The notes under the pieces were generated by a model that had not been told where the DNA came from, made no database searches, and saw only the letters and a program-made list of their open reading frames with translations. Below are positions 162 through 17,026 of a stretch of DNA of 47,072 bases, one piece after another; position 1 is the stretch's first letter, and the number at the start of each line of letters is the position of its first letter. Source of the DNA: an uncultured Bacilli bacterium. Lineage in GTDB: Bacteria; Bacillota_I; Bacilli_A; RF39; UBA660. The stretch is from contig CAJFEV010000002.1 in assembly GCA_904374795.1 (NCBI GenBank), positions 1-47,072 on the forward strand, in the 5' to 3' direction. Position numbers and translations under genes: made by a program.

Positions 162-1973
162 ATGGCAAGACAGTTTAAACAAGAAAATATTCGAAACTTT
201 TCCATTATTGCGCATATTGATCACGGCAAGAGCACTTTGGCTGATCGGATTTTGGAACTTACAGGTGCGATTAGTAAACGAGAAATGGTTAACCAAGTTT
301 TAGATAGTATGGATTTGGAAAGAGAAAGAGGTATTACAATTAAATTGAATGCAGTTTCCTTGCGCTATACGTATCATAATGAAGAATACATTTTGAATTT
401 GATTGATACTCCTGGTCATGTTGATTTTTCTTATGAGGTAAGTCGAAGTTTAGCTGCTTGCGAAGGAGCTATTTTAGTGGTAGACGCGTCTCAAGGAATT
501 GAAGCTCAGACTCTTGCTAATTTATATTTAGCCATGAATGCGGATTTAACAATTCTTCCTGTTATTAATAAAATTGATTTACCAAACGCGAATGTGTCTA
601 AGGTAAAGGATGAGCTAAAAAAGGTTTTAGGTTTTAAAGATGAAGAGATTTTGCTTTGTAGTGGGAAAACTGGTGAAGGGGTTCAAACTTTGATTGAAAC
701 GATTATTGAAAGAATTCCTCCTCCTCAAATTCATAATGACCTACCTTTACGAGCTTTAATTTTTGATTCTTATTTTGATCCTTATAAAGGTGTTGTTGCT
801 TTAATTAAGATTGAAGAGGGAGTTTTAAAGAATAAAGATGAGATACTTTTTATGGCAACAAATGTTTCTTATGAAGTTACAGAAATTGGTGTTCGTACAC
901 CAAAAGAACATCCTTTAGAAGAATTAAAATGCGGGGATGTTGGTTATGTTGTTGCGGCTATTAAGGATATTTCTTCTGTTCATGTTGGGGATACAATTAC
1001 GTTAAAGAAAAATCCTGCTAAGGAAGCGATTCACGGCTATAAACCAATGAAACCGATGGTGTATTCCGGAATATTTCCTGTAGAGCCAAATCGATATGAG
1101 GCTTTAAAAGAGGCTTTTCTTAAGTTGAAATTAAATGATGCAGCTTTAACGATTGAACCGGAAACGAGTGATGCTTTAGGATTTGGATTTCGAGTGGGTT
1201 TTCTAGGGCTTTTACATATGGATATTATTACAACACGTATTGAACGAGAGTTTGCTATTTCTGTAATTGCTACTAGTCCTAGCGTAGTGTATCATGTGAC
1301 TTTGACAAATGGAGAAAGCATTATGGTTGATAGTCCAAATAAGATGCCTGATGCGGTCAAAATTAAACAAATAGAAGAGCCTTTTATTTATACGAATATT
1401 ATTGTGCCAAGTGAGTATATTGGGCCTATTATGGAACTTTGCCAAAATAAACGAGGAATATATAAATCTTTGGAATATATAGATGAAACAAGGGTAAATA
1501 TTCATTATGAGATTCCTTTATCAGAAGTTGTTTACGATTTTTTTGATAAACTAAAAAGTTATTCAAAGGGATATGCTTCTTTTGATTATGAAATTTGTGG
1601 ATACCGAGTAAGTGATTTGGTTAAAATGAATATCTTATTAAATGGTGAAGTTGTTGATGCCCTATCTATAATTGTTCATAAGGATTTTGCTTATCAAAGA
1701 GGAAGAGCAATTGTAAACAAATTAAAAGAGGTTATTCCAAGACAATTGTTTCAAATACCCATTCAAGCAAGTATTGGTTCAAAGGTTATTGCTAGAGAAA
1801 ATATTTCGGCAATGAAGAAAAATGTTTTAGCTAAGTGCTACGGTGGGGATATTACTAGAAAAAGGAAATTATTAGAGAAGCAAAAAGAAGGAAAGAAAAG
1901 AATGAAGATGGTAGGAAGTGTTGAAGTGCCAAGTGAAGCCTTTCTATCAATATTGAGTGGAGATGATAAATAA
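162..1973 (+). CDS. lepA: Translation elongation factor 4 (LepA GTPase)
   Basis: [32 protein letters not shown] and C-terminal [25 protein letters not shown]; ATG at 162 follows the RBS (track start 153 is GTG inside the RBS). Confidence 0.98.
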
Positions 1974-3292
1974 TGCGAACTATAAGACAAAAAGTATATG
2001 ATTTAGCTTCTAATGAGAGAAAAACGGATCAAGAAATTGCGGACATGTTGTTTTTGGAAAGAAAGACTGTAAATAACTGGATAAATGATTTAAGAGAGCC
2101 TTCATCAGAGTTTTACAATTTAGCTTTATATAATCAAATTCTTTTTGAAAGAAATTATTTAAAAGGTTTTGTGGATAAAGATTTACTGGGAGATATTGTC
2201 AAACTTTCTTTTCAAGGGCTAACATTTATTGAAATTGCTGCTTTACTTGGGACAACAGAAGGGGATATTTTGAAGATGCTAGATTCTTATAATAATAAGA
2301 ACCGTTCTGTTTATAATCCGGAACTTTATCAGCAATTGCTTGTTAATAATAGTAAAAATATGGCGAGTAATGAAAGGGAATTATTTAAAAAGTTTAATGA
2401 TTTAGTAAATAATGGAGTAAAGCTTAATCAGGTTTCTAATTCAACTATTGTTAAAAAATTTTATAGATATCAAAATGCGAGAAGGGTTATTGAAACTTTG
2501 CTGGAATCAAATTTTACAGCTACAGATCAACATATCGCAAAAGTTTGTGGTGTGACTACTTCATTTGTTGGTGAAATTTTAACAGGAAAAGATAATGAAA
2601 AATTAGGGCAAAAGTTTTTTGGGGAAGAAATGATGCAATTTATAAAGAAAAAGCGTTTGGAAAGAGCTGAGAATAATCGCCATCATTTAAATTTGGGTTC
2701 AAATGATTCTTTAAGTCATGAAGCTCAAGTTAAATTAAGTGTTATTGTTCAAAATATTACTTTTTGGCTTCGCATTATTTTTTCTTTCCGGTTAACCTTA
2801 GAGGAATTTGGAGAAGTCGTGCAATTTCACAATTTGCAAGCATTAAGTAAAGCTATTTATAGTGCTGCAGAGTGTCAAAGTATTTATTATCAAAATGCTT
2901 TAAATTATTTGTTTAGTACTGCGGTAAATTCTCATGAGAATCAACGTGTGGAGACTGTAAAAGCTTTTCTTTTAAAACTTCATCTTGCAAGGAGTTCTAA
3001 TCTTGTTGAGTATAAAAAGCTGCTTGAACAAATCAATGATCAAGACTATAAAAATTTAGTAAAAAAATACACGAGTGGTACAAAAACGCTTTTAACTGAT
3101 GAAGATATTCAAGTGATTTTAAATTATCGATTAAAATATGCTCTTCCAATTCACGTTATACCTTTTAATAGAGAAGTATTGCATCGAAGATGTCCAGAAT
3201 CTTTAAGGGAGCAACTTGCTGAATTGGATAAATTCAATGTTGAACGTTCAAGATTTTATTATGCTAATAAAAATGATGGGTTAAAGAAATGA
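1973..3292 (+). CDS. Hypothetical protein with several helix-turn-helix-like segments
   Basis: 439-aa ORF overlapping the lepA stop (TAATG) and hemW start (ATGA); HTH-like strings TDQEIADMLFLERKTV, TFIEIAALLGTTEGDI, TDQHIAKVCGVTTSFV. Confidence 0.7.
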   Translation: MRTIRQKVYDLASNERKTDQEIADMLFLERKTVNNWINDLREPSSEFYNLALYNQILFERNYLKGFVDKDLLGDIVKLSFQGLTFIEIAALLGTTEGDILKMLDSYNNKNRSVYNPELYQQLLVNNSKNMASNERELFKKFNDLVNNGVKLNQVSNSTIVKKFYRYQNARRVIETLLESNFTATDQHIAKVCGVTTSFVGEILTGKDNEKLGQKFFGEEMMQFIKKKRLERAENNRHHLNLGSNDSLSHEAQVKLSVIVQNITFWLRIIFSFRLTLEEFGEVVQFHNLQALSKAIYSAAECQSIYYQNALNYLFSTAVNSHENQRVETVKAFLLKLHLARSSNLVEYKKLLEQINDQDYKNLVKKYTSGTKTLLTDEDIQVILNYRLKYALPIHVIPFNREVLHRRCPESLREQLAELDKFNVERSRFYYANKNDGLKK

Positions 3293-4371
3293 TATCTGTA
3301 TATATTCATATTCCTTTTTGCAAGTCTATTTGCTCTTATTGCGATTTTTGTAAAGTTTTTTATTATCAAAAATGGTCACATCAATATTTACTGAAATTAA
3401 AAGATGAAATTTTGGATTTATATGATGGAGAAGAAGTTAAAAGCATTTACATTGGTGGAGGTACACCTTCTGTTCTTTCTAATAACGAACTTGAATTTTT
3501 GATGAATATTCTAAAAGTTTTTAAACGAACAATAACTTGTGAATTTACTTTTGAATGTAATTTAGAAGACATTTCCAAGGAATTGTTGACTATTTTAAAG
3601 CAAAATAAGGTTACTCGTTTAAGTATTGGAATTCAAAGTTTTCAGAAAGAAAATTTAAAATTATTAGGTAGAAATCATAGTTTTAAAGACGCAGAAGAAA
3701 AAATGGCCTTAATACGGGAATTTGGGTTTAAAAATGTAAACTTAGATCTTATTTATGCTATTCCGGGCGAGACAATGAAAATGTTAAAAGAAGATATTAA
3801 ATGTTTTTTAAAATTAAAGCCTGATCATATTAGTACATATAGTTTAATGATTGAACCTAACACACTCTTATGGATTAATGGAGTCCGGCCAATCAAAGAA
3901 GAATTGGACGAGGAAATGTATCATTATCTTTGTAAAACTTTAGAAAAAAAAGGATATATACATTATGAAATTAGTAATTTTGCTAAAGAAGGCTGTGAAT
4001 CTATTCATAATTTGACTTATTGGAATAATGAAGAATATTATGGCTTTGGTTTGTCTGCTTCAGGTTATATTGATCAAATTCGTTATACAAATACGAAAAA
4101 TTTATCTAAGTATCTACAAGGCGAATATAAAGGTACGGAAGAAATACTATCTAAAAAAGATATTATGGATAATGAGATGATGCTGGGTTTAAGAAAAATT
4201 AAAGGAATTTGTAAAGAGGAATTTGAAGAAAAATATCAAGTAAAAATGGAGGATGTTTATCCAATTAAGCCTTTATTGAAAAATGGAGATTTAGAAGAAA
4301 AGAAAGGCTATATATTTATTCCTTATGATAAACTTTATGTTATGAATGAAATTCTTTTAAAAATGATGTAA
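3289..4371 (+). CDS. hemW: Radical SAM heme chaperone HemW (HemN-like)
   Basis: YIHIPFCKSICSYCDF (CxxxCxxC), GGGTPS, HYEISNFA, HNLTYW; canonical position after lepA. Confidence 0.93.
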   Translation: MISVYIHIPFCKSICSYCDFCKVFYYQKWSHQYLLKLKDEILDLYDGEEVKSIYIGGGTPSVLSNNELEFLMNILKVFKRTITCEFTFECNLEDISKELLTILKQNKVTRLSIGIQSFQKENLKLLGRNHSFKDAEEKMALIREFGFKNVNLDLIYAIPGETMKMLKEDIKCFLKLKPDHISTYSLMIEPNTLLWINGVRPIKEELDEEMYHYLCKTLEKKGYIHYEISNFAKEGCESIHNLTYWNNEEYYGFGLSASGYIDQIRYTNTKNLSKYLQGEYKGTEEILSKKDIMDNEMMLGLRKIKGICKEEFEEKYQVKMEDVYPIKPLLKNGDLEEKKGYIFIPYDKLYVMNEILLKMM

Positions 4372-4376: not shown

Positions 4377-4405
4377 GAATATTTTTTCTCACTTTTGCCA
4401 AACTA
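4377..4405 (+). promoter_or_regulatory. Candidate forespore (sigmaG/sigmaF-type) promoter
   Basis: GAATA-N17-CAAACTA, close to Bacillus sigmaG consensus GHATR-N17/18-CAWAHTA. Confidence 0.35.
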
Positions 4406-4423
4406 ATTTATAAGGTGATTCTA

Positions 4424-4906
4424 GTGAAAAAAATATTCTTTTTTCTTTTGTCTTTTTTCAGTTTTATTCCATTTGTTTTTGCAGATTCTATTAAAAACTT
4501 AGAAGTTATGAATGGTACTCTTTCTAGAGAATTTGAATCAACAAATAATGTTTATTCAGTTATTTTAGATGATTCCGAAGATTCTCTTAAAGTTACTTAT
4601 GAGTTAAACGACCCAGAGGCTAAAGTTGTTTTTCATAATAATGAGTATGTAGATGGTGGTGAGAATAAGATGGAGCTTGAAGTAGAAAATACAGATGGTA
4701 CAAAGGAAATCTATACTTTTTATTTAGAGAAAGAGGAAACAACTCCTGTATTTAATGAAGCAATTTTAACAAATAACATGAGTGAACAAAAAGAAATTCC
4801 ATTTTTATCTTGGTATGTAGGAATTGCTTGCTTTATGATTATCGCTTTATTGTTTAAGGTTATTGTATTGGGATTTAAAAAAAATAAGAAATGTGCAAAA
4901 AAGTAG
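4424..4906 (+). CDS. Exported, membrane-anchored protein with cadherin-like beta-sandwich domain
   Basis: Signal peptide (KKIFFFLLSFFSFIPFVFA-D), LEVMNGTLSREFESTNNVYSV...VENTDGTKEIYT pattern, C-terminal TM helix plus basic tail; GTG at 4424 after AAGGTGA. Confidence 0.7.
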   Translation: MKKIFFFLLSFFSFIPFVFADSIKNLEVMNGTLSREFESTNNVYSVILDDSEDSLKVTYELNDPEAKVVFHNNEYVDGGENKMELEVENTDGTKEIYTFYLEKEETTPVFNEAILTNNMSEQKEIPFLSWYVGIACFMIIALLFKVIVLGFKKNKKCAKK

Positions 4907-4923
4907 CACATTTTTTTTATTTT
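4880..4923 (+). terminator. Intrinsic terminator
   Basis: AAATGTGC-loop-GCACATTT stem followed by a T-run. Confidence 0.6.
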
Positions 4924-4924
4924 C

Positions 4925-4953
4925 GCATATTTATACAGTGAGAGGCATATAAT
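4925..4953 (+). promoter_or_regulatory. Candidate mother-cell (sigmaE-type) promoter of the Gp10-like/RHS operon
   Basis: GCATATT-N14-CATATAAT; same geometry as the motif upstream of the spoIIM-like gene. Confidence 0.45.
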
Positions 4954-5001
4954 GCTTTTTTATATGGCTTTTAAAATCTCACATTTAGAAAGGAAGTAAT
5001 T

Positions 5002-6087
5002 ATGAATTTAGATGAGATGAAAAAAAACAGTGTAAATAGTGTGGAATTAGTTGATTCTTTACATGCTCCGTTATTGGAGTTTAAAGTAGCTCTAACTACA
5101 TCTAGCACAATACCTACAGAAAGTGATTTAAAGATTTTTGTTGATGATCATGAAACGGATGAAACAAATCGTAAAACTATTATTTATACACTTTCTAAAC
5201 CATTACAGTATGTAAATGGAGTGACAGATAAGTTTATTTTAGAACCGGTTTTTAAAGGAAATATGGTTCAAATGAAAGCTTATGTAGAACGGAATATTAA
5301 TCAAAATTTAGAAGGAGGTCTTGAAGTTTTAGAAATGCCGATTATTGAAGAACTTACATATCAGCCTATTCTTATGTTTTCTTCTTATAACAGGATTTCT
5401 ACCAATTATGAAAATGCAGAGTTAAGTTTACTTTATCCTAAAAATACCGATTTTGTGAAGTATTTTTTAATAAGTAGTTTTTCTTATAGTTTGAATAATG
5501 AAGATAAGTTTTTAACTTTAGATGATATTTATTTTAAAAATTGCTTTACAGAAACAGAAGAAGGGAAAATTAATGCAGAATTTAATAAGTTAACAATTAA
5601 ATGTTTAAATTCTTCAAATAATAATTTTAGTCTAGATTGTGACGGGAATTTGGTAGTGAATAGTATAACTACAAAAGTTCAAGATGAATCTTCTTCAAAT
5701 ATTGATTTCGATCAAATTTATCCTGTCGGTTCAATTTATTTAAGTGTCAGTGCTACTAATCCTGGTATTTTGTTTGGGGGTTCTTGGGAAGCATTTGCAG
5801 CTGGGAAAACCCTAGTTGGAATTGATGCAAATCAAGAAGAATTTAACACGGTAAATAAAATAGGCGGAGAGAAAAAACATACTTTAACGATTGATGAGAT
5901 GCCTAGTCATGATCATAAGCGTCCAAATTCTATTCTTTATAACGGAAATTCATCATGGTGGATAGGTGGCGCTGGTGGTACAACGATTGAGGTCGTTGAA
6001 ACTCCAACAAGTACTTCTGGTGGTAATCAAGCACATAATAACTTGCAACCTTATATAACTATTTATATGTGGAAGAGAGTTGCATAG
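5002..6087 (+). CDS. Protein with C-terminal phage baseplate Gp10-like / tail-collar-type domain
   Basis: C-terminus IYPVGSIYLSVSATNPGILFGGSWEAFAAGKTLVG...GGEKKHTLTIDEMPSHDH...GGNQAHNNLQPYITIYMWKRVA is the typical phage baseplate/tail-fibre tip signature; no signal peptide. Confidence 0.8.
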   Translation: MNLDEMKKNSVNSVELVDSLHAPLLEFKVALTTSSTIPTESDLKIFVDDHETDETNRKTIIYTLSKPLQYVNGVTDKFILEPVFKGNMVQMKAYVERNINQNLEGGLEVLEMPIIEELTYQPILMFSSYNRISTNYENAELSLLYPKNTDFVKYFLISSFSYSLNNEDKFLTLDDIYFKNCFTETEEGKINAEFNKLTIKCLNSSNNNFSLDCDGNLVVNSITTKVQDESSSNIDFDQIYPVGSIYLSVSATNPGILFGGSWEAFAAGKTLVGIDANQEEFNTVNKIGGEKKHTLTIDEMPSHDHKRPNSILYNGNSSWWIGGAGGTTIEVVETPTSTSGGNQAHNNLQPYITIYMWKRVA

Positions 6088-6097
6088 GAGGTTTTGT

Positions 6098-9000
6098 ATG
6101 AAAGAATTAAAAAATTTGAGAAAACCTCGTGAAAAACATTTTTTAAATGAAAACGGACTTATTACTGCGTATATGTATAATGAAGATGTTCATTATTTAA
6201 AAAATCAAGAATATCATGAAATTGATAATTCTTTAATTGAAAAAGAAAACTATTTTCAAAATAAAGAAAATAGTTTTCAAGCACATTTTTTTAAAAATAG
6301 TGAAAATAAAATTTTTGAAATAATAAAAGATGAAAATTTTCTTTCTTTTTCTTTAAATAATTCAAATCATTCTATTATCACTACTAATAAATATGCTATA
6401 ACCTATCAAAATATTTTAAAAAATATAGATATAACCTATCAGTTTATTCATAATAAAATTAAAGATACCATTCTTTTAAAAGACAAAGATAATGATTTTC
6501 AAAAATTAAAGTTTATTATTAGAACAAATTTAGAATTGAAAATGGAAAATAATGAAATTTTTCTTTTTGAACAAGGTAAATTTATTTATAAAATTGAAGC
6601 ACCTATTTTATTAGATAAAAATAAAAATTCATATCCAGTTCATTATGTTTTAGTGAAAAATGAACAGGAATATCTTCTTTCATTTCATGTAGACGAGTCT
6701 TTGCTGCAGGAAAGTGAACTATATCCATTTATTCTTGATCCTACAATTGTGAATGACGATAAGAAAAATGTCTATGATACCTATATTTATCCGGGAGATG
6801 AAAACGCTGATCGAAACAATCAAGAATTCTTAAAAGTTGGTGTAGATAAAAACAATGTTACTTATCGAACTTTATTAAAATTTGATTTACCAACCATTGG
6901 AACCGGATGCGATGTACTGAAAGCAACAGCTGTATTAATAAGTCATCCAAGTGAATTTGTAAAAGATGAGGAAGCTTATTCTCATAAAACTTTTGAAGCC
7001 TATCAAGTCATATCATCTTGGAGTGAGGAAACTGCTAATTGGAATACTATGCATGGTAAGTATAATTCGCATATAGATGATTATTTTTGGGCTTTTAAAA
7101 CAGAATATAATAAAGATGAAAATACTTTTTATTTAAAAGATACAACTATGGATATTACAAATGTTGCAAAAAAGTGGTATGCCGGAGAAGAAAATAATGG
7201 TGTATTGTTAAAACTTGAAGATGAAGTATATGGAGAGGAAAGCATGTATGCTTTTTACTCTAAAAATAATACTGTTTCAGATGAAATGGAGAATATAGAT
7301 GATCCAAAGCCTTATCTTTTAGTTACATATCGTAATCTTAATGGTTTGGAAGATTATATGACATATCAAAATATTCCTTTTCAAGAAGGAACTGGATATG
7401 TAAATAATTTAACTGGAAATTTAACAACAGTTTTTAGAGTTAATGGAACTATTGGAGGAAAATTCCCAATTGAATTAAGTTTGATTTATAATGCAAACGA
7501 TGTTGTGTTAAACAACAATATTGGACTTGGAAAAGGATATCGTTGGAATTTTCAGCAAACTTTAGAAGAAGTTGAAATTTCTGGAGTATCTTATTTAGAA
7601 TATATAGATTCTGATGGTACAATTCATTATTTTTCTAAAATAGATGAAACAACCTATCAAGATGAAGATGGTTTAAATTTTACCATTACTTTGGATAGCG
7701 AGAAATATGTATTAAAAGACAAAGAAAATCACCAAAAGATTTTTGAAAAAAGTGGAAATTTATACTATTTAAAGAAAATTGTTGATACCTATCAAAATGA
7801 AGTAGTTATTTCTTATGATGAAAATCATCGGATTAATGAAGTGAAAGATGCGAATAACGAAAGTATTTATATTACCTATGAAGAGAATAAGATTACTACA
7901 ACAAGTTCATATGAAACGAGTATTTTAAATATCCAAAATGAAAAAATTATAAATCTTGTAACAAAATTCGGAACAACCAGCTTTACTTACGATTCTAAAG
8001 ATTTACTTTCCAAAATCACGGATATAAATTTATTAGAAACAGACTTTGTCTATTATGAAACAAGTCCTTATCGTATGAAAAAAATCATTGAAAAGGGGAC
8101 AGATGGAACTACTGGAAACACGTTAGAATTTTTGTATTCTTTTTTGACAACAAAAACGGTTAATCAAAAAGGACAAGTAAAAAATTATTTGTTTAACTCT
8201 CAAGGAAATACGATTAATGTTACCAGTTTAAAAGATGATTTAGATTTTAAAAATGGGTATGGAACAGAAGATGTTTATGATGCAAATGACAATACTAAAA
8301 ATAAATTGTCTTTACGTATTCCTATTATGAAATATGTAAAAAATTTATTTTTAGATCCAAGCTTTGAAAAAAGAAATGAAGGATTCATTTATGATATAGC
8401 AACAATAGATACTCTAAATGCACGAAGTGGGGAAAAATGTGTTCGAACAAATTATGAAACAGATATTCCTTTGCCTAGTGTTTTAGAATCAGGTTATTAC
8501 ACTTTCAGCGGTTATTTTAAACATACAAGTGGTATGGAACTAACAATTCGAACTTCAAACACAAGTGTTTCTGAAACAAAATATTACACATTTACGGATG
8601 AATATAAACGATATTTTTTAACAGCTTATTTAGAAGCAAATACTTCTTATCATGTTACCGTCTTTCCAATGAATAATTCGACGGTTTATATGGATGATTT
8701 TCAGTTTGAAAGTGGGGAAGTAGTAAATTATCTTAATTTGATTGAAAATCCAGATTTTAGTGATGGAATGGCTGGATGGACAAATTCAGTTTACACGTTA
8801 AATGGAGAGACTACTACGAATGACGATGAAATTATTACTTTAGAAAATGGCCAAACGGTTTACCAGATGAATTGTAAGTCTACCCTTAGTAAAACATTAA
8901 CTAAACAGTTGCAACTCACAGGAAAAAAAGGAGATACGTATAGACTTTCGTTTTGGTATAAAAACGAAGGATTAAAAGATGGTTCGATTGCTGTAGGAAA

Positions 9001-12000
9001 TATTGCATTTTTACTTTTTGGTTATACCTCTGAAGTTCCTCATGGAGTGCCTACGTATAGTTTAAATCCACATGCAACAGAGTGGCAATATTTTGAAAAA
9101 ATTATCATTGCAGAAGAAGATTATACAAGTATTACATTAAATATTATGGCTCAGTTTAATGTAAACAAACTTTATTTTACTAATCTTTACTTAGTAAAAG
9201 ATTTTAGTGGTACTTCTTTTGAGTATGATGAGGAGGGAAACTTAATTTCTTCAACTGATCTTGCCAATTCTACTTCAACATTTCAGTATGACGCGAACAA
9301 TCAATTAGTTAGTAATTTTGCTCCGAAAGGGAATAATTTTCATTTTGAATATGATAATCAAGACTCTCAAAAACTATTACAAGGAGTTTCGACTAAAGGA
9401 ATTGCTAATCAGTTAAAATATGATACTAATCAAAATCCAATTCAAACAATTATTAAAAGTGTAAATTCATCTTTATCTTTAACTGAAGAATACTTTTATA
9501 TAAGAAAGAAAGCTACGGATAAATATTTATTTGCCGATTTTTATAGTAATAGACCTATATTAAAAGATTTTGAATGCAATTTAAGTCGTTTCCAATTAGA
9601 ATTAGAACATGATGAAACGCAAAATAAAGACTATTATTATATAAAAACAGACTTTATTTCAAAATACTTTGCATATCGTGAAAATATCAGTGAGAAAATT
9701 GCGTTTGTAGATACGAAGGAACAGGCTAGTTTATTTGAATTAATTGCAAATAAAAATGGTAGTTATACTTTACGAATCAAGCGAGTAGTTTCCACTGATC
9801 CTGAAGATATCACGCAAGACTCTTGTATTACTTTTGATGAAGAGGATAATTTAATTATTGAAGTGTATCATATGGATGATCCAAGTCAAGAATTGTTTTT
9901 TGAAAGTGCTGAAACCCCTTTATATGTAGAAACAAAAGCAGAATATGAAGAAACAGGAAAGTTTGTTTCCAAAACTATTGATTCTTTAGAAAAAGTTACT
10001 CTTTACGATATTGATGAACTTACAGGCTTAACAAACAGTATTACTAATCCAAAAGGGCAAACTATATATTATGAGTATAATGATAAAGAACAAGTAACAA
10101 AAATTAAGAAAAAAGAAAAAGAAATTCTTTATGCTTATAATACTCAAAATTTACTTTCAAAAATTACAAGTAATAATAAGGAATATACTTTTGATTATGA
10201 TGGATTTTTAAATAAAAAACAAACAAAAATCAATAATCAAATTCTTTCAACAAATCAATATGAAGAAAATAATGGAAATTTAACAAGTGTCAATTACGGA
10301 AACGGAAATACAATTTCCTATACATATGATGATTTTAATCGTTTAAAAACTCACACTAAAAATGGTAGTGTATATACTTATTATTATGACAATATGAATA
10401 ATTTAAGTAGAATTACTTCTAATGAAGAAACGTATGAATATAGTTATGATTTAGCTGGAAGAATAAGCAGTTATTTATATAATCAAAAAGAGTATTTTTC
10501 AGGACAAACTACTATAGATTACGAATATGATAGTAATGGCAATGTTACCAAAAAACGTTTATCTAATGGGTTAGCTATAGAATATACTTATGATGAAGAT
10601 GACAATATCATTAAAGTGGATGTTAACAATGCAACTTTAAATTATCAACGAGATTATTTAGGAAGATTAGTGGGTAAGAATATTAACAATCAAATTCCAA
10701 TTGAATATACGTATTATACAAATGGAAATAAAACATCTTTTGTTTTAAAAAGCATGAAAATTGAAAATGAATTATACGAATATTTCTATGACGATACATA
10801 TAATTTGAGTAAAATATTTAAAAATCAAAAACTTTATCAAGAATATACTTATGATGATTTTAATGAGTTAATAGAAGAACATCATTATGAAAGAGGAAGA
10901 ACATATCGTTATACATATGATGATTCTGGAAACATTTTATTTAAAAGAGAATACGAGTTAAATACTTTTAACCTTTATCATGAAGATAAGTTTTCTTATG
11001 AAAACGAAAATTGGGAGGATCAATTAACAAAATTTAATGATATAGAAATCACTTATGATGCAATTGGTAATCCGACAAGTATTGGAGATGCAACACTTAC
11101 TTGGGCAAATGGAAGAGAATTGCAAAGTTATCAAAATGGAGATTTACAAGTTTCTTATAAGTATAATAAGGATGGAATTCGAAGAAAAAAAATTATTAAT
11201 AATGTAGAAACAGAATACTTTACAGAAAATAACTCGATATTATTTGAAACCACCAGTGGTGTTATGTTATACTATTTACGAGATGACAACAATAGCCTAC
11301 TAGGATTTATTTATAATGGAACAACCTATTATTATAAGAAAAATCTTCAAGATGATATCGTTGGCATCTATACAAGTAATTATGAGCTCATAGCAACCTA
11401 TGAATATGATGCATGGGGAAAAATACTAAGTATAAAAGATCAAAACAACAACGAAATTATAGATGAAACTCATATTGCTATGATTAATCCATTTAGATAT
11501 AGGTCTTACTACTATGATAAAGAAACAAAACTTTATTATTTGAATAGTAGATACTATAATCCAGAATGGGGAAGATTTATTAATGCAGACGGAATCATTG
11601 GTGTACAAAATACTAAAATAGGATATAATTTATTTTTATATGTTTTAAACAGACCTATTCTTTTAGTTGACAATGGTGGGAATTTTTGGAATCCAATTGA
11701 TGTTGGAAAAAAAATATGGGGTGGAATTATGAAATTTGGCGCATATATTGGAGGAATCATCACAGATGCTAAAATTGCTGGAAAAGGATTCGCAAAGTCA
11801 TTTGATGAGTATTACAAGAAAAAATTAGATTTTGATGATAAAGAAAACCTTAGTAACCAAATAAAACATTCTTCTCAATTTCAAAATGCAGTTAAAAATG
11901 CTATTGTTGAATCAAATGGTGATTATTTTAAGGTAAATTCAACTTTAAATTATACAAATGCCACAGGAGATTTGAAACTTTTTATTGGGGAGGCAAACGT

Positions 12001-12199
12001 TTCAATGGAAGGAACACGTATAAATAATATTTGGGTGGTTGATGCTAGAGTCTATGATACATATGATTTCACTGAATGGAGATATGACTTTTCTTTTGGA
12101 TCGATTGCAAATAATTTCGGATTAATTTTATCTGATATAGGATTAGTAAAGCCATATAAATGGGATGTGAATTTTAGAGCAGTTTATAAAATAAAATAA
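6098..12199 (+). CDS. WapA-like RHS/YD-repeat polymorphic toxin with DNRLRE and carbohydrate-binding domains
   Basis: DNRLRE-type segment (YDTYI...YRTLLKFDLP...NNGVLLK...KPYLLVTY), two CBM-like modules (NLFLDPSFE, NLIENPDFSDG), many YD repeats, RHS core (YEYDAWG, NPFRYRSYYYDKETKLYYLNSRYYNPEWGRFINAD), PILLVDNGG cleavage motif; ATG at 6098 after AGGAGG that overlaps the upstream stop. Confidence 0.93.
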   Translation: MKELKNLRKPREKHFLNENGLITAYMYNEDVHYLKNQEYHEIDNSLIEKENYFQNKENSFQAHFFKNSENKIFEIIKDENFLSFSLNNSNHSIITTNKYAITYQNILKNIDITYQFIHNKIKDTILLKDKDNDFQKLKFIIRTNLELKMENNEIFLFEQGKFIYKIEAPILLDKNKNSYPVHYVLVKNEQEYLLSFHVDESLLQESELYPFILDPTIVNDDKKNVYDTYIYPGDENADRNNQEFLKVGVDKNNVTYRTLLKFDLPTIGTGCDVLKATAVLISHPSEFVKDEEAYSHKTFEAYQVISSWSEETANWNTMHGKYNSHIDDYFWAFKTEYNKDENTFYLKDTTMDITNVAKKWYAGEENNGVLLKLEDEVYGEESMYAFYSKNNTVSDEMENIDDPKPYLLVTYRNLNGLEDYMTYQNIPFQEGTGYVNNLTGNLTTVFRVNGTIGGKFPIELSLIYNANDVVLNNNIGLGKGYRWNFQQTLEEVEISGVSYLEYIDSDGTIHYFSKIDETTYQDEDGLNFTITLDSEKYVLKDKENHQKIFEKSGNLYYLKKIVDTYQNEVVISYDENHRINEVKDANNESIYITYEENKITTTSSYETSILNIQNEKIINLVTKFGTTSFTYDSKDLLSKITDINLLETDFVYYETSPYRMKKIIEKGTDGTTGNTLEFLYSFLTTKTVNQKGQVKNYLFNSQGNTINVTSLKDDLDFKNGYGTEDVYDANDNTKNKLSLRIPIMKYVKNLFLDPSFEKRNEGFIYDIATIDTLNARSGEKCVRTNYETDIPLPSVLESGYYTFSGYFKHTSGMELTIRTSNTSVSETKYYTFTDEYKRYFLTAYLEANTSYHVTVFPMNNSTVYMDDFQFESGEVVNYLNLIENPDFSDGMAGWTNSVYTLNGETTTNDDEIITLENGQTVYQMNCKSTLSKTLTKQLQLTGKKGDTYRLSFWYKNEGLKDGSIAVGNIAFLLFGYTSEVPHGVPTYSLNPHATEWQYFEKIIIAEEDYTSITLNIMAQFNVNKLYFTNLYLVKDFSGTSFEYDEEGNLISSTDLANSTSTFQYDANNQLVSNFAPKGNNFHFEYDNQDSQKLLQGVSTKGIANQLKYDTNQNPIQTIIKSVNSSLSLTEEYFYIRKKATDKYLFADFYSNRPILKDFECNLSRFQLELEHDETQNKDYYYIKTDFISKYFAYRENISEKIAFVDTKEQASLFELIANKNGSYTLRIKRVVSTDPEDITQDSCITFDEEDNLIIEVYHMDDPSQELFFESAETPLYVETKAEYEETGKFVSKTIDSLEKVTLYDIDELTGLTNSITNPKGQTIYYEYNDKEQVTKIKKKEKEILYAYNTQNLLSKITSNNKEYTFDYDGFLNKKQTKINNQILSTNQYEENNGNLTSVNYGNGNTISYTYDDFNRLKTHTKNGSVYTYYYDNMNNLSRITSNEETYEYSYDLAGRISSYLYNQKEYFSGQTTIDYEYDSNGNVTKKRLSNGLAIEYTYDEDDNIIKVDVNNATLNYQRDYLGRLVGKNINNQIPIEYTYYTNGNKTSFVLKSMKIENELYEYFYDDTYNLSKIFKNQKLYQEYTYDDFNELIEEHHYERGRTYRYTYDDSGNILFKREYELNTFNLYHEDKFSYENENWEDQLTKFNDIEITYDAIGNPTSIGDATLTWANGRELQSYQNGDLQVSYKYNKDGIRRKKIINNVETEYFTENNSILFETTSGVMLYYLRDDNNSLLGFIYNGTTYYYKKNLQDDIVGIYTSNYELIATYEYDAWGKILSIKDQNNNEIIDETHIAMINPFRYRSYYYDKETKLYYLNSRYYNPEWGRFINADGIIGVQNTKIGYNLFLYVLNRPILLVDNGGNFWNPIDVGKKIWGGIMKFGAYIGGIITDAKIAGKGFAKSFDEYYKKKLDFDDKENLSNQIKHSSQFQNAVKNAIVESNGDYFKVNSTLNYTNATGDLKLFIGEANVSMEGTRINNIWVVDARVYDTYDFTEWRYDFSFGSIANNFGLILSDIGLVKPYKWDVNFRAVYKIK
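11281..11585 (+). repeat. 305-bp RHS-core repeat, copy 1 (inside the full-length toxin)
   Basis: Near-identical to 12838-13142 (about 6 substitutions counted by eye). Confidence 0.95.
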
Positions 12200-12226
12200 A
12201 AAATTTTTATATAAAAGAGGATAAAT

Positions 12227-12754
12227 ATGAAAAAAACATTAATAAGTATGACTATTTTCTTAGCAATACTTGTATATTTTCAATACACTACTTCTTGCAA
12301 ATTTGCTTTTAAAGTTAATTATGATTTGAAGATGCCTGAACCTGAGTCACATCATGTATATTTTTCAGGCTTTCAAGATGTACCTGTGTTTACAGAACAT
12401 AAGTACAAAGATACTTTAAACGAAAAAACATTAAAACAATTTAATAGATTTAATAGTTCTAATGATATGGATATTGTTATGAAATATTTACGTGCTTATT
12501 TAAATCTATTGTCAAATGAAAATAAAGAAATTGTAATATCAAATTTTTCTAAAGATATTCTTAATGAAAATAATTATTATTTTGTTTACGATAAAAACAG
12601 GCGTTTCACTATACTCATTTATGATGTAAAAACAAAAGTTTTATACGAGATGATAGCTACCTACTGTTACAGAAATTGTCCTAGAAAATTAATTGATGAA
12701 GAAAATAATTATAATATTGCTGATGAGTTTATTATAAAGGAGATTGAATGGTAA
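12227..12754 (+). CDS. Putative cognate immunity protein, N-terminally anchored/exported
   Basis: Directly after the RHS gene; hydrophobic N-terminus MKKTLISMTIFLAILVYFQYTTSC; GAGG RBS. Confidence 0.7.
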   Translation: MKKTLISMTIFLAILVYFQYTTSCKFAFKVNYDLKMPEPESHHVYFSGFQDVPVFTEHKYKDTLNEKTLKQFNRFNSSNDMDIVMKYLRAYLNLLSNENKEIVISNFSKDILNENNYYFVYDKNRRFTILIYDVKTKVLYEMIATYCYRNCPRKLIDEENNYNIADEFIIKEIEW

Positions 12755-12774
12755 AAATATAACAATAAATCATA

Positions 12775-12831
12775 AAAAAAGCATCAAGAAAAAGAAATCT
12801 TGATGCTTTTTTAAAAATTTTAAGGTATAAT
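12775..12831 (+). repeat. Array junction element J1 (hairpin terminator plus -10 box)
   Basis: AAAAAAGCATCAAGA-AAAAGAAA-TCTTGATGCTTTTTT then TTTAAGGTATAAT. Confidence 0.85.
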
Positions 12832-12837: not shown

Positions 12838-13142
12838 AGATGACAACAATAGCCTACTAGGATTTATTTATAATGGAACGACTTATTATTATAAGAAAAA
12901 TCTTCAAGATGATATTGTTGGCATCTATACAAGTAATTATGAGCTCATAGCAACCTATGAATATGATGCATGGGGAAAAATACTAAGCATAAAAGATCAA
13001 AACAACAACGAAATTACAGATGAAACTCATATTGCTATGATTAATCCATTTAGATATAGGTCTTACTACTATGATAAAGAAACAAAACTTTATTATTTAA
13101 ATAGTAGATACTATAATCCAGAATGGGGAAGATTTATTAATG
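12838..13142 (+). repeat. 305-bp RHS-core repeat, copy 2 (orphan module)
   Basis: Near-identical to 11281-11585. Confidence 0.95.
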
Positions 13143-13786
13143 GCGATAATTTAATATTGCAAAATACTAATACGTTATTAAGCAATAATTTATATCTTTA
13201 TTGTGATAATAATGTAATTAATAATACTGATAAAAATGGCCATCATATTTTTACCGCTAATATAGAATTATTAAAAGAATATTCTTATAGTATCTCTGAT
13301 ATCGGAAGTAACACTGTTATGGTGGAGATTGAAATTGGAGATAGTTATTATGTAGCAACAATGTCAAATAATGCAATACATTTTGCATTTTCAGAAAACC
13401 CAGATCTGAAGGATAATGGTTATACTATAGCAACAGCCTTATACGAAGCATATCATGATTTTTATTTGGAAGATATGACAGGAAGAACTTTTGCTGGAAT
13501 AAAATCAGAAATTGTTATTCATAAACTAGCCAATGATTTATTTGAAACTTTGAAAATGGAAAAATTGAACGAAAGGAGCAAAATTGCAGATATTGGTACT
13601 ACAAAATCTGATAATAATGCATGGATTTTTAAAGAATTTACGCCTCCTGTAATTGTTATTGAAGATAAAAAGAGTAAAACTAATTCTTTAACACAAAATT
13701 ACTGCCCTGTACCTAAAAAGCCAAAATCTAAAAATCCTTTTCGCGAATTTTTGGGATGGCTAGGAAATTTGTTTCTAATATTATGA
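12839..13786 (+). CDS. Orphan RHS C-terminal toxin module (5'-truncated RHS core plus alternative tip)
   Basis: Frame is open from DDNNSLLGFIYNG at 12839, first ATG at 13037 without clear RBS; core ends NNVINNTDKNG, then a tip unrelated to the main toxin. Confidence 0.85.
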   Translation, partial: DDNNSLLGFIYNGTTYYYKKNLQDDIVGIYTSNYELIATYEYDAWGKILSIKDQNNNEITDETHIAMINPFRYRSYYYDKETKLYYLNSRYYNPEWGRFINGDNLILQNTNTLLSNNLYLYCDNNVINNTDKNGHHIFTANIELLKEYSYSISDIGSNTVMVEIEIGDSYYVATMSNNAIHFAFSENPDLKDNGYTIATALYEAYHDFYLEDMTGRTFAGIKSEIVIHKLANDLFETLKMEKLNERSKIADIGTTKSDNNAWIFKEFTPPVIVIEDKKSKTNSLTQNYCPVPKKPKSKNPFREFLGWLGNLFLIL

Positions 13787-13806
13787 TATTGAAAGGAAAT
13801 TTGAAT

Positions 13807-14457
13807 ATGAAAGAAAAAGTAAAAAAAATAGTTTATAGTAAAGTATGGAATATTATTGATATTTTTCTTATTTTATTTTTACTATTTCATTATGTCTTTT
13901 TTATCAAATTTTCTTTTCAATTATCGTTTGTTTTTCCCATTTTAAATATTTTATTAGTTATTTTAAGTGTTTTTAGAATAATTGTTAGATTTATTTTAAT
14001 TTTTAAAGAAAGAAAATTTTTGAGATTCATGAATATTCTTTTTGTATTGTTCTTTTTACCATTACTTTTTTTAGCAGGAGCTTTGAAATTTGTAGATTTA
14101 ATCTTTCCACTTTTTTATAGAGATACGTATTATTTTTCCGAAAATTTTGAAGAAAGTTTTACATCTTATACTTATTTTAGTGGAACTGATGCCGATACGT
14201 ATATTTTTTACGAAAAAGAATTAGGTTTTGGAATTAAATGTATAGCTATGATAGATTATTATCATGAAATTTTTAATACTTCCACTTCTGCAGATAAAGA
14301 AGTTTATAAAAATTATATAAAAAACACAAAATTAAATATTGACTATAATAAATATATCTTAGAAATTGAAAAAGGTGATGATTTAGGTTTTTGTTATCAC
14401 AATTTAGCACAGAAATATGAAAGTGAAAATAATGTTATAGAATATTTCTTTGATTAA
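13807..14457 (+). CDS. Putative membrane immunity protein for the orphan tip
   Basis: Three hydrophobic helices followed by a soluble domain; ATG at 13807 after GAAAGGA. Confidence 0.7.
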   Translation: MKEKVKKIVYSKVWNIIDIFLILFLLFHYVFFIKFSFQLSFVFPILNILLVILSVFRIIVRFILIFKERKFLRFMNILFVLFFLPLLFLAGALKFVDLIFPLFYRDTYYFSENFEESFTSYTYFSGTDADTYIFYEKELGFGIKCIAMIDYYHEIFNTSTSADKEVYKNYIKNTKLNIDYNKYILEIEKGDDLGFCYHNLAQKYESENNVIEYFFD

Positions 14458-14640: not shown

Positions 14641-15375
14641 ATGGTAAGAAGATTTAATGAATTAAAAACAGGTGATACTTTTGCTTGGAAAATTGAAACA
14701 GATGAATATCCGGATTTTAAAGGAAGGTATATAATATTAACCTATTATTATAATGAAGATTTTGAAAAAAGGAGTTGTAAGCTTTTTAGACTTAAAATAA
14801 CAAAAGATAAAAAACTTCCTGTAAATGAAGAAGAAGTGAATAATTTAGAAGATATTAAATTATGTCATAATATATATGAATTAGCCATTAAAGAATATGA
14901 AGAGGCTAAAAGTGCTATACCCGATGAATATGGTTATATATATCAGTATACTTTAAATATGTATATTGATCGCAAAACTTTGCCTAAAAAATTAAATTAT
15001 ATCGGAAATTTTCAATTAAAACCTATTCCAAATGAGTTTTATTCTAAAACAAGAACGAGAAATCAAGCTGGTGCTTGTTGGGAATATTTTGATGAGAATA
15101 TTTTAAGACCCTATGTGCAATATAATTTAAAACAGTTTATGGGATACACTAAGGAAGGAAATAAAAGAATATATGATCATGAAGTGGATGCAGAAAATTT
15201 CAGAATGTATTTAAAAAAATTAGGTGACGCTATAGAAGGACCTAATGGAAAAGAAGTATTAAAGGCTTTAGGAATAGATATTGATCAGGAAATAAAAGAA
15301 GGAAAACATTTAAAAGACAGTTTAACATATGTAGGTCCAAAAGAAGAAAAAAACATCAAGAAAAAGAAATCCTGA
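14641..15375 (+). CDS. Putative cytoplasmic immunity protein, paralogue P1
   Basis: AGGAGG RBS; shares GDTF...EY...GRY, DEYGYIY, YIGNF, YNLK, YTKEGN, LGIDI, KDSLTYVG with three other array genes. Confidence 0.75.
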   Translation: MVRRFNELKTGDTFAWKIETDEYPDFKGRYIILTYYYNEDFEKRSCKLFRLKITKDKKLPVNEEEVNNLEDIKLCHNIYELAIKEYEEAKSAIPDEYGYIYQYTLNMYIDRKTLPKKLNYIGNFQLKPIPNEFYSKTRTRNQAGACWEYFDENILRPYVQYNLKQFMGYTKEGNKRIYDHEVDAENFRMYLKKLGDAIEGPNGKEVLKALGIDIDQEIKEGKHLKDSLTYVGPKEEKNIKKKKS

Positions 15376-15403
15376 TGTTTTTTCTTTATATTTAAGATAT
15401 AAT
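15343..15403 (+). repeat. Array junction element J2
   Basis: AAAAAAACATCAAGA-AAAAGAAA-TCCTGATGTTTTTT then TTTAAGATATAAT; contains the P1 stop codon. Confidence 0.85.
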
Positions 15404-15422
15404 GGCTTTAGGAAGTGCTTAA

Positions 15423-16166
15423 ATGAAGAGAAAAAGAAATCATTATAATTTAATTGTTTATGCATCAAGACTATTTATAATAAGTGGGTTTATTTTTTTA
15501 ATGTTATTTTCATTAGGAAACATGGAAATTGTATCTTGCTTAAAGAAATATGAAATATTACTACTTATTATGTCTTTTGCTTGTGCTTTTATTTTGTTTA
15601 TTCTTTTAGCTTTGTTAGATAAATATGAAAATAAAATTACTATTGATTTGGATTTTCCACGAAAACCTTTTGTCTATAATGTTTTAGACTTACATGCATT
15701 AGAAACTTCAATATCGATACAATTAACTAAATTGAATTATGTACGAGATTCTTCTTCTTTTTCTGATTTTGACATTTATTATAATTATAAATATGTTTGG
15801 TGGTATTCTGGAAAAAAGCGTCAATTAAATACTTTTGTACAATTTGAATATGAAGAATTTACTAACGAAATAAAAAAATATTTATTGTTACAAAGACAAG
15901 AAATCTTTTATAAGTTGCATAAAAAAGCAAAATTTTGTCAAACAATATTTTTAGTTAAAATAAAAAATAATAATAAATATTTAGAAAAATACTTGAAAGA
16001 AGTAGTACCACAATTTTTAAGAAATTATTTTTTAATAGCAATACTTGTTGAAGAAGATGGGAAAATATATATTCCTCATTGTGATATTTCTTTTTTAGAA
16101 TATAGAGAAATGAGAAAAAGATTAGAAAAAATTTTATATGAACAAATAAAACGTGTTAAGAGATAA
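15423..16166 (+). CDS. Hypothetical membrane protein (2 N-terminal TM helices), putative immunity
   Basis: 247-aa ORF with AGGAAG RBS inside the array. Confidence 0.7.
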   Translation: MKRKRNHYNLIVYASRLFIISGFIFLMLFSLGNMEIVSCLKKYEILLLIMSFACAFILFILLALLDKYENKITIDLDFPRKPFVYNVLDLHALETSISIQLTKLNYVRDSSSFSDFDIYYNYKYVWWYSGKKRQLNTFVQFEYEEFTNEIKKYLLLQRQEIFYKLHKKAKFCQTIFLVKIKNNNKYLEKYLKEVVPQFLRNYFLIAILVEEDGKIYIPHCDISFLEYREMRKRLEKILYEQIKRVKR

Positions 16167-16203
16167 AAATCTTAATGCGTTTTTTAAAGTTTTAAGATAT
16201 AAT
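16148..16203 (+). repeat. Array junction element J3 (divergent)
   Basis: AAAACGTGTTAAGA-GATAAAAA-TCTTAATGCGTTTT then TTTAAGATATAAT. Confidence 0.75.
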
Positions 16204-16209
16204 TAATTT

Positions 16210-16976: not shown

Positions 16977-17026
16977 AAAGATACTAAAAATTTCAATAAA
17001 TATTTTGCGAATATAGGAGGAATCAA

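Follow-up and report, generated by a model that had tools for sequence, protein, structure and literature searches.

It is unsettled how RHS toxins above 200 kDa get out of the Gram-positive cells that make them and find their targets; in the excerpts on export of a paper on Streptococcus suis WapA, the passage through the cell wall is itself described as unresolved (PMC12704120). The same question is raised by a locus in the window, by which we mean the whole stretch of 47,072 nucleotides (nt) analysed here, contig C2 of a 1.30-Mb metagenome-assembled genome of an uncultured Bacilli bacterium (96 contigs, 89% complete, ~27% G+C). Positions 5002–12199 are a two-gene operon, in which a gene for a phage fibre-type protein is followed by a gene for an RHS protein, and behind it lie a candidate immunity gene and spare cassettes. 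The gene context of relatives suggests release by lysis of the producer cell rather than display on the spore, and we hold with moderate, roughly even, confidence that the pair is an RHS bacteriocin set free by lysis and directed to its targets by a phage receptor-binding protein. What seems new is the pairing of a fibre tip with a signal-less RHS protein, while RHS polymorphic toxins, lysis-linked toxin release and targeting by receptor-binding proteins are known. Our search of the open-access literature, with supplementary files outside its scope, found no description of such a pair. The features of the locus, with sizes in amino acids (aa), are listed here.

4925–4953, + strand: promoter-like element GCATATT-N14-CATATAAT, 48 nt upstream of the fibre-gene ATG
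5002–6087, + strand: 361-aa phage receptor-binding-type protein (Pfam Gp10_C, PHROG, structure model)
6085–6100, + strand: fibre/RHS junction; the TAG stop overlaps the AGGAGG ribosome-binding site, ATG at 6098
6098–6775, + strand: RHS residues 1–226, motif MKELxxLRKxREKHFLxxDGT and then a galactose-mutarotase-like beta-supersandwich (model, VIA-align)
6776–7327, + strand: RHS residues 227–410, DNRLRE domain of CBM96 fold (NCBIfam NF033679, E 4.3e-20)
7328–11404, + strand: RHS body, a further beta-rich region and the YD/RHS repeat shell (repeat matches at 9224–10936)
11405–11680, + strand: Rhs-associated core, residues 1770–1861, ending ...NRPILLVDNGG (TIGR03696, E 7.7e-16)
11681–12199, + strand: putative C-terminal toxin domain, ~172 aa (position after the Rhs core)
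12227–12754, + strand: candidate immunity protein, 175 aa, with a hydrophobic lipoprotein-like N-terminal leader (position directly 3' of the toxin)

A preliminary description of this locus, made from the letters alone, had read the first gene as a phage Gp10-like tail protein whose stop codon overlaps the AGGAGG of the RHS gene, and both the coordinates and Pfam agree. Residues 236–360 match Gp10_C (PF21939) at E 9.5e-30, with 104.8 bits against a cut-off of 27, and ten of the 11 PHROG matches are tail, tail-fibre or baseplate families. The protein consists of an N-terminal beta-sandwich (residues 1–150), a neck (~151–235) with an invariant DDIYFKDxFT and the Gp10_C tip (236–360); its N-terminus has no hydrophobic stretch and no signal peptide. 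An AlphaFold model reached a predicted local distance difference test (pLDDT) value of 76.8 overall, with 85–97 in the N-domain and a poorly predicted helical neck. The structure search proposed in the preliminary description, run with Foldseek, gave as best matches the full-length baseplate chains of phage KP1 (9f4b_FA, E 6.7e-6) and T4 gp10 (5iv5_AC, E 4.7e-5), along with the C-domain of gp10 (2fkk, E 3.1e-4), all with low template modelling (TM) scores of 0.22–0.41, and galectin-like lectins rank next. Residues 1–165 compared with a protein atlas gave no usable feature match, and structural matches there stayed at TM <= 0.45.

The way in which the fibre protein diverges may be informative about its role. 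Among 47 homologues, the N-domain and the neck have mean pairwise identities of 0.43 and 0.47, and the two parts of the tip frame of 0.68 and 0.58, while the middle of the tip falls to 0.29 and ranges in length from 75 to 129 residues. Two to four tip genes stand in tandem at seven loci (L093, L096, L103, L108, L109, L111 and L115; L and G numbers are our labels for loci and genomes), where the N-domain is sometimes a separate open reading frame (ORF) of 104–127 aa, and fibre forms of ~200 aa that lack the N-domain are found beside RHS genes in G027, L104, L105 and L120. A conserved attachment end together with a diversifying distal end is the pattern of a receptor-binding protein, and we infer that the fibre protein may be a targeting subunit and may bind the RHS protein. 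Prediction of a complex between RHS residues 1–230 and three copies of fibre residues 150–361 scored 0.00, which is no answer and counts neither for nor against binding, and a homologue search for longer fused forms of fibre residues 1–235 found none at E <= 0.001 among proteins of 633–2000 aa, which is weak evidence. Gp10_C also occurs in a different arrangement, at L121:6652–10871 and at L122 of uncultured Bacilli, where about nine tandem ORFs of 123–145 aa are each barely more than this domain (MKLNIDFIYPVGSIYMS...); these arrays adjoin neither an RHS gene nor an obvious prophage.

At the junction with the RHS gene, GTTGCATAGGAGGTTTTGTATG, the fibre-gene TAG occupies 6085–6087, AGGAGG 6086–6091 and the RHS ATG begins at 6098; in relatives, the RHS gene mostly starts ~10–50 nt past the fibre-gene stop. 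The sole in-frame start further upstream, a TTG at 6080, would extend the protein by MHRRFC without creating a hydrophobic stretch, and this extension scores -1.12. From its ATG, the gene (6098–12199, + strand) encodes 2033 aa, a common size for the family, given that 92 of 95 homologues of the RHS N-terminal region measure 1900–2200 aa (range 1580–2153). As a measure of signal peptides we used the maximum of Kyte-Doolittle hydrophobicity over 15 residues, and for the first 70 residues of the RHS protein this maximum is 0.11 (scored in the near-identical L059).

A model of RHS residues 1–430 (pLDDT 87.3) shows what takes the place at the N-terminus. VIA-align places residues 43–220 at Z ~10–11.4 next to domains of a chondroitinase, a PL33 lyase, GH38 and beta-galactosidase, and the DNRLRE/CBM96 module (223–410) next to 8wab_B (Z 16.7) and 7vbo_A (Z 13.9), with target-normalised TM values of 0.65–0.71 in Foldseek. 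CBM96 is a binding module for acidic polysaccharides, and the modelled N-terminus looks glycan-binding, unlike a phage docking domain. Further on, the YD/RHS shell is present (RHS_repeat PF05593, E 1.9e-32; YD_repeat_2x TIGR01643, E 4.5e-23; RHS_core, E 1.1e-17). Pfam at E <= 0.01 found on the RHS protein neither LXG, WXG100, PAAR or VgrG, as the preliminary description had said, nor LysM or a wall-binding repeat; WXG100 was likewise not found in the 89%-complete genome, in which EssC was not searched for. No Pfam family reaches its cut-off in the C-terminal ~172 aa, even among matches listed to E <= 1, and the usual position of toxins after the Rhs core makes this domain a putative toxin in no described family. 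The 175-aa protein encoded at 12227–12754 has homologues in the same place in loci of the genus (cluster 24) and no Pfam family; its position is the reason for regarding it as the candidate immunity protein.

We then turn to conservation, for which one genome per species was queried with an alignment of the 47 full-length fibre homologues, yielding 80 species-level loci. In 70 of these, the RHS N-domain lies directly downstream of the fibre gene, and none of the 70 partner RHS proteins has a signal peptide; all start at MKE(L/I)..LRK.REKHFL and have a hydrophobicity maximum of at most 0.89. The signal-less nature of the RHS protein, put forward in the preliminary description, is therefore borne out in the window protein and in every fibre-paired relative, none of which has a signal peptide upstream. 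The fibre N-domain was detected in 49 loci, 46 of them with RHS downstream, two cut by a contig end and one (L081) without, that is, in 46 of 47 judgeable loci. The ten loci outside the 70 are two at contig edges (L087, L099), two truly without RHS (L081, L128), the two mini-Gp10_C arrays (L121, L122), two ordinary prophage fibres (L127, L137) and two that match the C-domain only (L129, L136). This distribution supports a conserved functional unit and not the lone prophage relic that the preliminary description had also considered.

Within the genus of the window, the pair was found in four of 36 other genomes searched (65–93% complete), with fibre and RHS proteins of 404 and 2038 aa in G009, of 475 and 2046 aa in G018, of 484 aa and an RHS split into 573 and 1470 aa in G021, and of 200 aa with the RHS at a contig end in G027. 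G018 and G027 carry it at the same hemW site as the window. In the host genome, the pair in the window accounts for the sole RHS gene and the sole Gp10_C-type gene found. The pair-bearing species are named in the database as uncultured Bacilli, Tenericutes, 'Candidatus Ventrenecus', 'Caccenecus', 'Onthocola', Mycoplasma sp. CAG:776 and Clostridium sp. CAG:1000, a few of which are probably mislabelled bins; genera such as Ventrenecus, Caccenecus and Onthocola we take to be placed in order RF39.

The RHS N-domain itself extends well beyond these species, to 53 of the 399 genomes of a class-wide draw, in 11 families. From this draw we assembled a contrast set, in which 28 of 30 returned loci gave tblastn matches and were analysed. 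An N-terminal extension of 49–108 aa with a hydrophobicity maximum of 2.05–3.15, that is, a signal peptide, is carried by 23 of the 28 homologues, and no fibre gene precedes these. A signal is lacking in the window, in L030 and L031 of the same family, each with a fibre gene upstream, in L035 at a contig start, and in L056. Fibre, holin, endolysin and sigma-r4 markers were absent from the 16 Sec-type loci that were fetched with flanks of 3–5 kb. In a quick tree of the first 430 RHS residues, 71 fibre-type rows together with L140 and L159 fall on one side and 15 Sec-type rows together with L157 and L035 on the other, with ~2 label changes. The RHS protein of the window has lost the Sec signal that its sisters carry, and the association between signal absence and fibre presence is perfect but reflects largely one evolutionary event, not many independent gains. 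A second type of signal-less RHS gene, with no fibre gene, was seen at L159:5435–8281 (G318, another family of the class); it is preceded by genes for a 153-aa protein with multiple membrane segments, which could be a holin, and a 221-aa protein, neither with a Pfam family.

If the signal was lost, the surroundings of the pair may tell how the toxin leaves the cell. All ORFs around the 70 pairs were clustered, and representatives were scanned with Pfam and PHROGs.

Upstream, ~160 aa, 22 loci (cluster 3): Sigma70_r4_2 (sigma-r4) protein, 29.6 and 27.2 bits against a cut-off of 25.7; sigma factor in PHROGs
Upstream, ~178 aa, 10 loci (cluster 8): helix-turn-helix protein, r4 match sub-threshold only
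Between fibre and RHS genes, ~124 aa, 19 loci (cluster 4): coiled-coil ORF, no Pfam or PHROG family
Downstream, ~262 aa, 25 loci (cluster 2): Peptidase_M23 with LysM or PG_binding_1; endolysin in PHROGs
Downstream, ~132 aa, 9 loci (cluster 10): Phage_holin_4_1, E 1.6e-37
Downstream, ~102 aa, 13 loci (cluster 9): small membrane protein, phrog_4105 (phage family), no Pfam family
Downstream, ~72 aa, 6 loci (cluster 13): small membrane protein, phrog_13256 (phage family), no Pfam family
Downstream, ~75 aa, 4 loci (cluster 36): small membrane protein

A holin-like or endolysin-like gene lies within ~3 kb of at least 27 of the 70 pairs, a number that is a floor because just ~3 kb past the RHS gene was fetched; lysis genes beyond the 27 are a GH25 lysin at L138 and an M23 gene 6 kb downstream at L093. 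The sigma-r4 protein lies within 3 kb upstream in 19 of its 22 loci. The arrangement is typified by the stand-alone cassettes L078, L095 and L104, which run from sigma-r4 through fibre, at times the coiled-coil ORF, RHS and immunity genes to holin or small membrane proteins and endolysin, with housekeeping genes on either side; tube, sheath, tape-measure and baseplate genes are absent from these three cassettes. The coiled-coil ORF of ~124 aa (for example L078:10125–10532 and L070:10085–10450) could be an assembly factor or adaptor, and is absent from the window and the host genome. At L128:8169–10989, a sigma-r4 gene (165 aa) is followed by a short fibre (192 aa), two small membrane proteins and a GH25+LysM lysin, with no RHS or immunity gene; this locus is either a deletion derivative or the ancestral frame that received RHS genes.

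At five loci (L124, L130, L131 and, on viral contigs, L141 and L142), a prophage module of tail fibre, holin and endolysin precedes the pair. The order at L141 and L142 is tail genes, a 650-aa fibre, two small membrane proteins, an endolysin-like 261-aa gene, a 200-aa fibre and RHS, and their small membrane proteins are of the kind that matches a PHROG holin family in the equivalent locus L130. A relative was found on only three viral contigs. The Gp10_C feature of phage tail-fibre and baseplate proteins is thus present at the pair itself, while a tail or baseplate gene module around it is not found in the 47-kb window and occurs only in the relatives L130, L141 and L142.

A number of observations weigh against the view that the pair is a bacteriocin released by lysis and aimed by its fibre. 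For about 41 of the 70 pairs, the fetched DNA, much of which is ~3 kb of downstream flank, shows no lysis gene. Many of these bare pairs sit among ribosomal-protein, ftsZ, ftsH, nusB, greA or mur genes, which argues that the lysis cassette is not obligatory. Of five bare loci checked, four had no M23 gene on the same contig; the five genomes have 5–7 M23 genes each, of which only one, at L093, lies near a pair. In the host genome (89% complete), tblastn with cluster members found no Phage_holin_4_1 protein, no member of clusters 9, 13 and 36 and no sigma-r4 protein. The host's one full-length M23 protein (C17:9338–10114) sits among housekeeping genes and a recombinase gene, and its single cluster-8 homologue lies in what resembles a conjugative element. 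At the level of the protein, the RHS N-domain is common to Sec-type proteins, so that it is no fibre-specific docking domain. The deepest split of the RHS tree is weak, with a Shimodaira-Hasegawa-like approximate likelihood ratio test (SH-aLRT) value of 40, and with about two label changes the link between signal loss and fibre goes back to one or two events, after which both states were long retained. Lastly, the RHS frame is split in two at L059, L060, L018 (G021), L095 and L130 (for example 789+1256, 1018+987 and 573+1470 aa), which could be decay or assembly error. The locus in the window has the signal-less toxin of a lysis cassette, and an adjoining holin or endolysin is found neither in the window nor in the genome, yet is found in at least 27 of the 70 related loci; since the window has no holin or endolysin of its own, we do not class it as a member of the lysis cassettes, and the mechanism extends to it by kinship only.

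With these points in mind, the bacteriocin reading can be laid out in steps, two of which rest on observation, namely that both proteins lack an export signal and that relatives have a lysis-gene context. Both proteins would be made in the cytoplasm and would exit when the producer cell lyses, as the holin and endolysin genes with a sigma-like regulator, or a prophage lysis module, in relatives suggest. No lysis genes are nearby in the genus of the window, so lysis there would come from elsewhere, and mother-cell lysis at the end of sporulation might be a candidate because the promoter of the fibre gene resembles that of spoIVA. Once outside, the mutarotase-like sandwich, the CBM96 module and the hypervariable fibre tip would bind the surface of a competitor, and the RHS shell would then deliver the C-terminal toxin, while the lipoprotein-like immunity protein would protect sister cells. 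The fibre protein would give a diffusing toxin the targeting that the wall-anchored, contact-dependent WapA does not need.

Sporulation is also central to an alternative in which the pair is expressed in the mother cell from a sigmaE-type promoter and is displayed on or released with the spore, the fibre serving as carrier or anchor. The element at 4925–4953 is an exact match to ATATT-N13-15-CATAnAnT, a form of the sigmaE consensus, and in B. subtilis spoIVA and yabP depend on sigmaE. The organism has the gene set of a spore-former, with Spo0A, SpoIVA (634 bits) and YabP in the genome and SpoIVB and a SpoIIM-like gene in the window, although SpoIIGA was not found in the 89%-complete genome. 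Only three of the 28 genome sites precede an ORF with a ribosome-binding site, and these ORFs are the fibre gene, spoIVA, whose site GTATATT-N14-CATATAGT has the same 14-nt spacer, and a Fic-domain gene. The 28 sites compare, however, with a shuffle mean of 34, which is no enrichment. When one mismatch is allowed, sites precede 44 ORFs, among which spoIVA and yabP are clear sporulation genes, and a D-Ala-D-Ala carboxypeptidase gene and one for a weakly YtvI-like protein are possible ones, but most precede non-sporulation ORFs or fragments inside genes, and many sites are themselves inside genes. The stricter B. subtilis-type motif [GT][AC]ATATT-N13-15-CATAnAnT has six genome sites, too few for a regulon, and only that of the fibre gene precedes an ORF. 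Across the genus, the full element is found in L059 and L076, with one mismatch in G018, and its first half alone in L062, L063 and L067, which lack the -10 half; the -10 part is kept in four of seven genus loci, and the motif is found in just five of 70 family loci. Relatives rely instead on a dedicated sigma-r4 protein together with phage lysis genes, and attachment to the spore is indicated by nothing we observed. The locus in the window has no lysis or secretion genes, which suits release with the spore in that mother-cell lysis would supply the exit. Taking these together, a sigmaE-like promoter is possible for the genus of the window, and display on or release with the spore in the form just described is quite unlikely. 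The sigmaE-like promoter of the preliminary description thus holds as far as its resemblance to the spoIVA site of the same genome goes, and set against this are the lack of enrichment and the patchy -10 part; its core idea, a domesticated fibre tip joined to a toxin that needs no secretion machine, is upheld by gene context, while spore display gained no direct support. In 13 of 70 loci, where shuffles average 0.2, the fibre gene is preceded by another element, CTAG[CT][AG]-N4-7-nnAGT[AG], after which CATATAA or TTATGAT is frequently seen; this element is probably a shared promoter or operator, and is not present in the window.

The remaining alternatives question the partnership, the exit route or the exit itself. 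The two genes might travel together as prophage cargo with no joint function, the fibre being a leftover or alternative tip and the RHS gene an independent add-on. The five loci in which the pair sits right behind a prophage fibre, holin and lysin module fit this idea, as do L140, where an RHS gene lies between ArpU-like and terminase genes with no fibre gene, L128, with its lysis genes and fibre and no RHS, and the small Gp10_C ORFs of ordinary prophages (G014, G020, L127, L137). We nevertheless find it unlikely, given the tight spacing and fixed order in 70 loci, many of them far from phage genes among ribosomal, FtsZ, NusB and Mur genes, the near-constant presence of the fibre N-domain beside RHS in judgeable loci, and the coincidence of signal-peptide loss with the presence of the fibre gene. 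A dedicated exporter not recognised here, T7SS-like (type VII secretion system) or a holin-like channel, might instead read MKELxxLRKxREKHFL and spare the cell from lysis. The first ~20 RHS residues are strongly conserved over the 70 loci, as an export signal might be, and holin-dependent non-lytic export has been described, at least in the excerpts of one account (PMC9527704). Against this stand the absence of WXG100 from the genome as assembled and of any conserved transporter gene recurring near the pair in the 70 loci, as well as the fact that the motif also follows the signal peptide in Sec-type homologues, with alignments starting at query residues 1–8. The motif accordingly belongs to the folded N-domain rather than being a signal peculiar to the signal-less proteins, and such an exporter seems improbable to us. 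Finally, the pair might act inside the cell, for example in abortive infection, and never be released, in keeping with two proteins that have no export signal and a window locus with no lysis genes. This is scarcely credible for an RHS protein that retains two glycan-binding modules, whose immunity candidate has an extracytoplasmic-type leader, whose polymorphic C-terminal domains and orphan cassettes are typical of interbacterial competition, and many relatives of which are accompanied by lysis genes.

Release by lysis with targeting by the fibre, the reading we prefer, has parallels in several known systems. Like WapA of B. subtilis and S. suis, the window RHS combines a large YD/RHS shell and an Rhs core with a putative polymorphic toxin at its C-terminus, and a candidate immunity gene and orphan cassettes follow it; with S. 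suis WapA it also shares, according to the excerpts of the paper on it, a DNRLRE domain near the N-terminus (PMC12704120). The same excerpts give WapA proteins a Sec signal peptide and LysM wall-binding repeats and keep them on the cell wall (PMC12704120), whereas the window RHS has no signal peptide and no LysM that we found, and is preceded by a phage fibre-tip gene. YenTc of Yersinia entomophaga is likewise a signal-less toxin with an RHS shell, and its phage-type lysis cassette parallels those of the window's relatives; in the excerpts of the work on it, a type 10 secretion system releases the toxin by lysing a subpopulation (PMC10847048). Tc toxins differ in being Gram-negative, built from components A, B and C and directed at insects, and here there is no TcA-like channel or SpvB domain; compared with YenTc, the partner here is a phage fibre tip, the lysins of relatives are of M23 or GH25 type, and the window locus has no cassette.

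A Gram-positive likeness, seen in relatives, is to the C. difficile PaLoc, in which signal-less large toxins lie beside genes for a small sigma factor, a holin and a phage-derived endolysin. Phage_holin_4_1, seen in nine relatives, is presumably the family of the PaLoc holin TcdE. As far as the excerpts of three papers go, the PaLoc includes the TcdR sigma factor, the TcdE holin and the endolysin remnant TcdL, with lysis genes of phage origin (PMC12485765, PMC10516005, PMC12150058). Its toxins are glucosyltransferases that act on host cells, and it has no fibre protein, in contrast to the RHS shell found here. Tailocins, monocin and F- and R-pyocins, as portrayed in excerpts of the literature, are also phage-derived, take their range from a receptor-binding protein and are released by a lysis cassette; unlike them, the window and the stand-alone cassettes have no tail tube or baseplate genes, and killing would be by the RHS toxin and not by a tail. 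MuF toxins, in the excerpts of their description, are likewise polymorphic and are borne by temperate phages of Firmicutes (PMC5576092); they are fused with a domain for head morphogenesis, while here the RHS protein stands beside a tail-fibre tip. The LXG/WXG100 toxins of the T7SS differ in that the RHS protein has no such domain and WXG100 was not found in the genome, with EssC not included in that search. In the parts of a 2012 survey of polymorphic toxins that we cite, tail-fibre repeats appear as stalks within toxins, and the word 'holin' occurs zero times (PMC3482391).

The neighbouring genes of the window complete the picture of the island in which the pair lies.

153–1973: lepA
1973–3292: 439-aa protein between lepA and hemW, with several weak helix-turn-helix matches
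3289–4371: hemW
4415–4906: 163-aa membrane protein with a signal peptide, a C-terminal membrane anchor and a cadherin-like beta-sandwich (E 0.0044, below cut-off)
13037–13786, + strand: orphan RHS C-terminal cassette, starting with a conserved core end (TIGR03696, E 3.4e-16, residues 3–69)
13756–14457, + strand: candidate membrane immunity gene of the orphan cassette
14641–19413, + strand: array of ~245-aa paralogues (at 14641, 17027, 17864 and 18637) and membrane-protein genes (at 15423 and 16401)
From 20004: RDD-family gene and GDPD gene

The array at 14641–19413 belongs to clusters 7 and 14, which also recur 3' of RHS genes in relatives and have no Pfam family; its genes probably represent orphan immunity genes. 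In the genus, hemW and the 163-aa gene mark one border of the island and GDPD marks the other. The 163-aa gene precedes the fibre gene in G018, G027 and L059 too, and not in G021, and its product is probably a mere neighbour of the pair; in G027, a 168-aa protein occupies the gap between lepA and hemW where the window has the 439-aa helix-turn-helix protein. A Pfam scan covered 31 ORFs of the window, including all but one of those of at least 90 aa beyond 19.7 kb. Phage structural, holin, endolysin and secretion-system genes were absent from these 31 ORFs, in agreement with the preliminary description, which had seen no further phage or secretion genes. The only two genes of mobile type among them are a Xer-type integrase (27176–28081) and a DDE transposase (31074–32162). 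Three genes in a row at 21656–24975, which encode a 606-aa HerA-like DUF87 ATPase, a 186-aa protein of no recognised family and a ThiF-family protein, possibly form a module for defence or modification. Elsewhere in the host genome, G000:C1:34069–44225 is a region resembling a conjugative element, with an 819-aa ORF that looks by eye like a VirB4-type ATPase, a 1018-aa surface protein and the genome's single cluster-8 homologue.

Sequencing runs give a view of where the locus occurs. At least half of the words of 4400–12800 are present in 19 runs from eight studies, mostly of chicken-gut metagenome, two of which are perhaps the source of the DNA. The chicken-gut metatranscriptome X20 holds four contigs of 237–262 nt identical to parts of the RHS gene, a weak hint of its transcription, as RNA libraries can contain DNA; RNA run X24 gave no match and the contigs of X20 leave most of the stretch uncovered, which is uninformative on expression. 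In DNA run X5, a metagenome contig with a side of 30 letters and a depth of 4.3 joins 4917 to 12223, skipping exactly the fibre and RHS genes, and could stem from a strain that lacks the pair or has a divergent allele of it, or be an artefact.

The family offers a natural comparison, between sisters that keep a Sec signal and relatives that are signal-less, carry a fibre tip and often have a holin or endolysin. A bolder and, to us, doubtful extension is that RHS shells with exchangeable phage tips are a new bacteriocin particle, freed by programmed lysis and widespread in small-genome gut Bacilli, and that the genus of the window dropped the lysis genes and rewired the pair to a mother-cell promoter, so that the toxin would be released with the spore. 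If the lysis-released, fibre-aimed reading of the pair is true, it would represent a new trafficking mode for polymorphic toxins, in which release by lysis is combined with targeting by a receptor-binding protein, and exchangeable tips would set the target range of these toxins in abundant uncultured gut bacteria.

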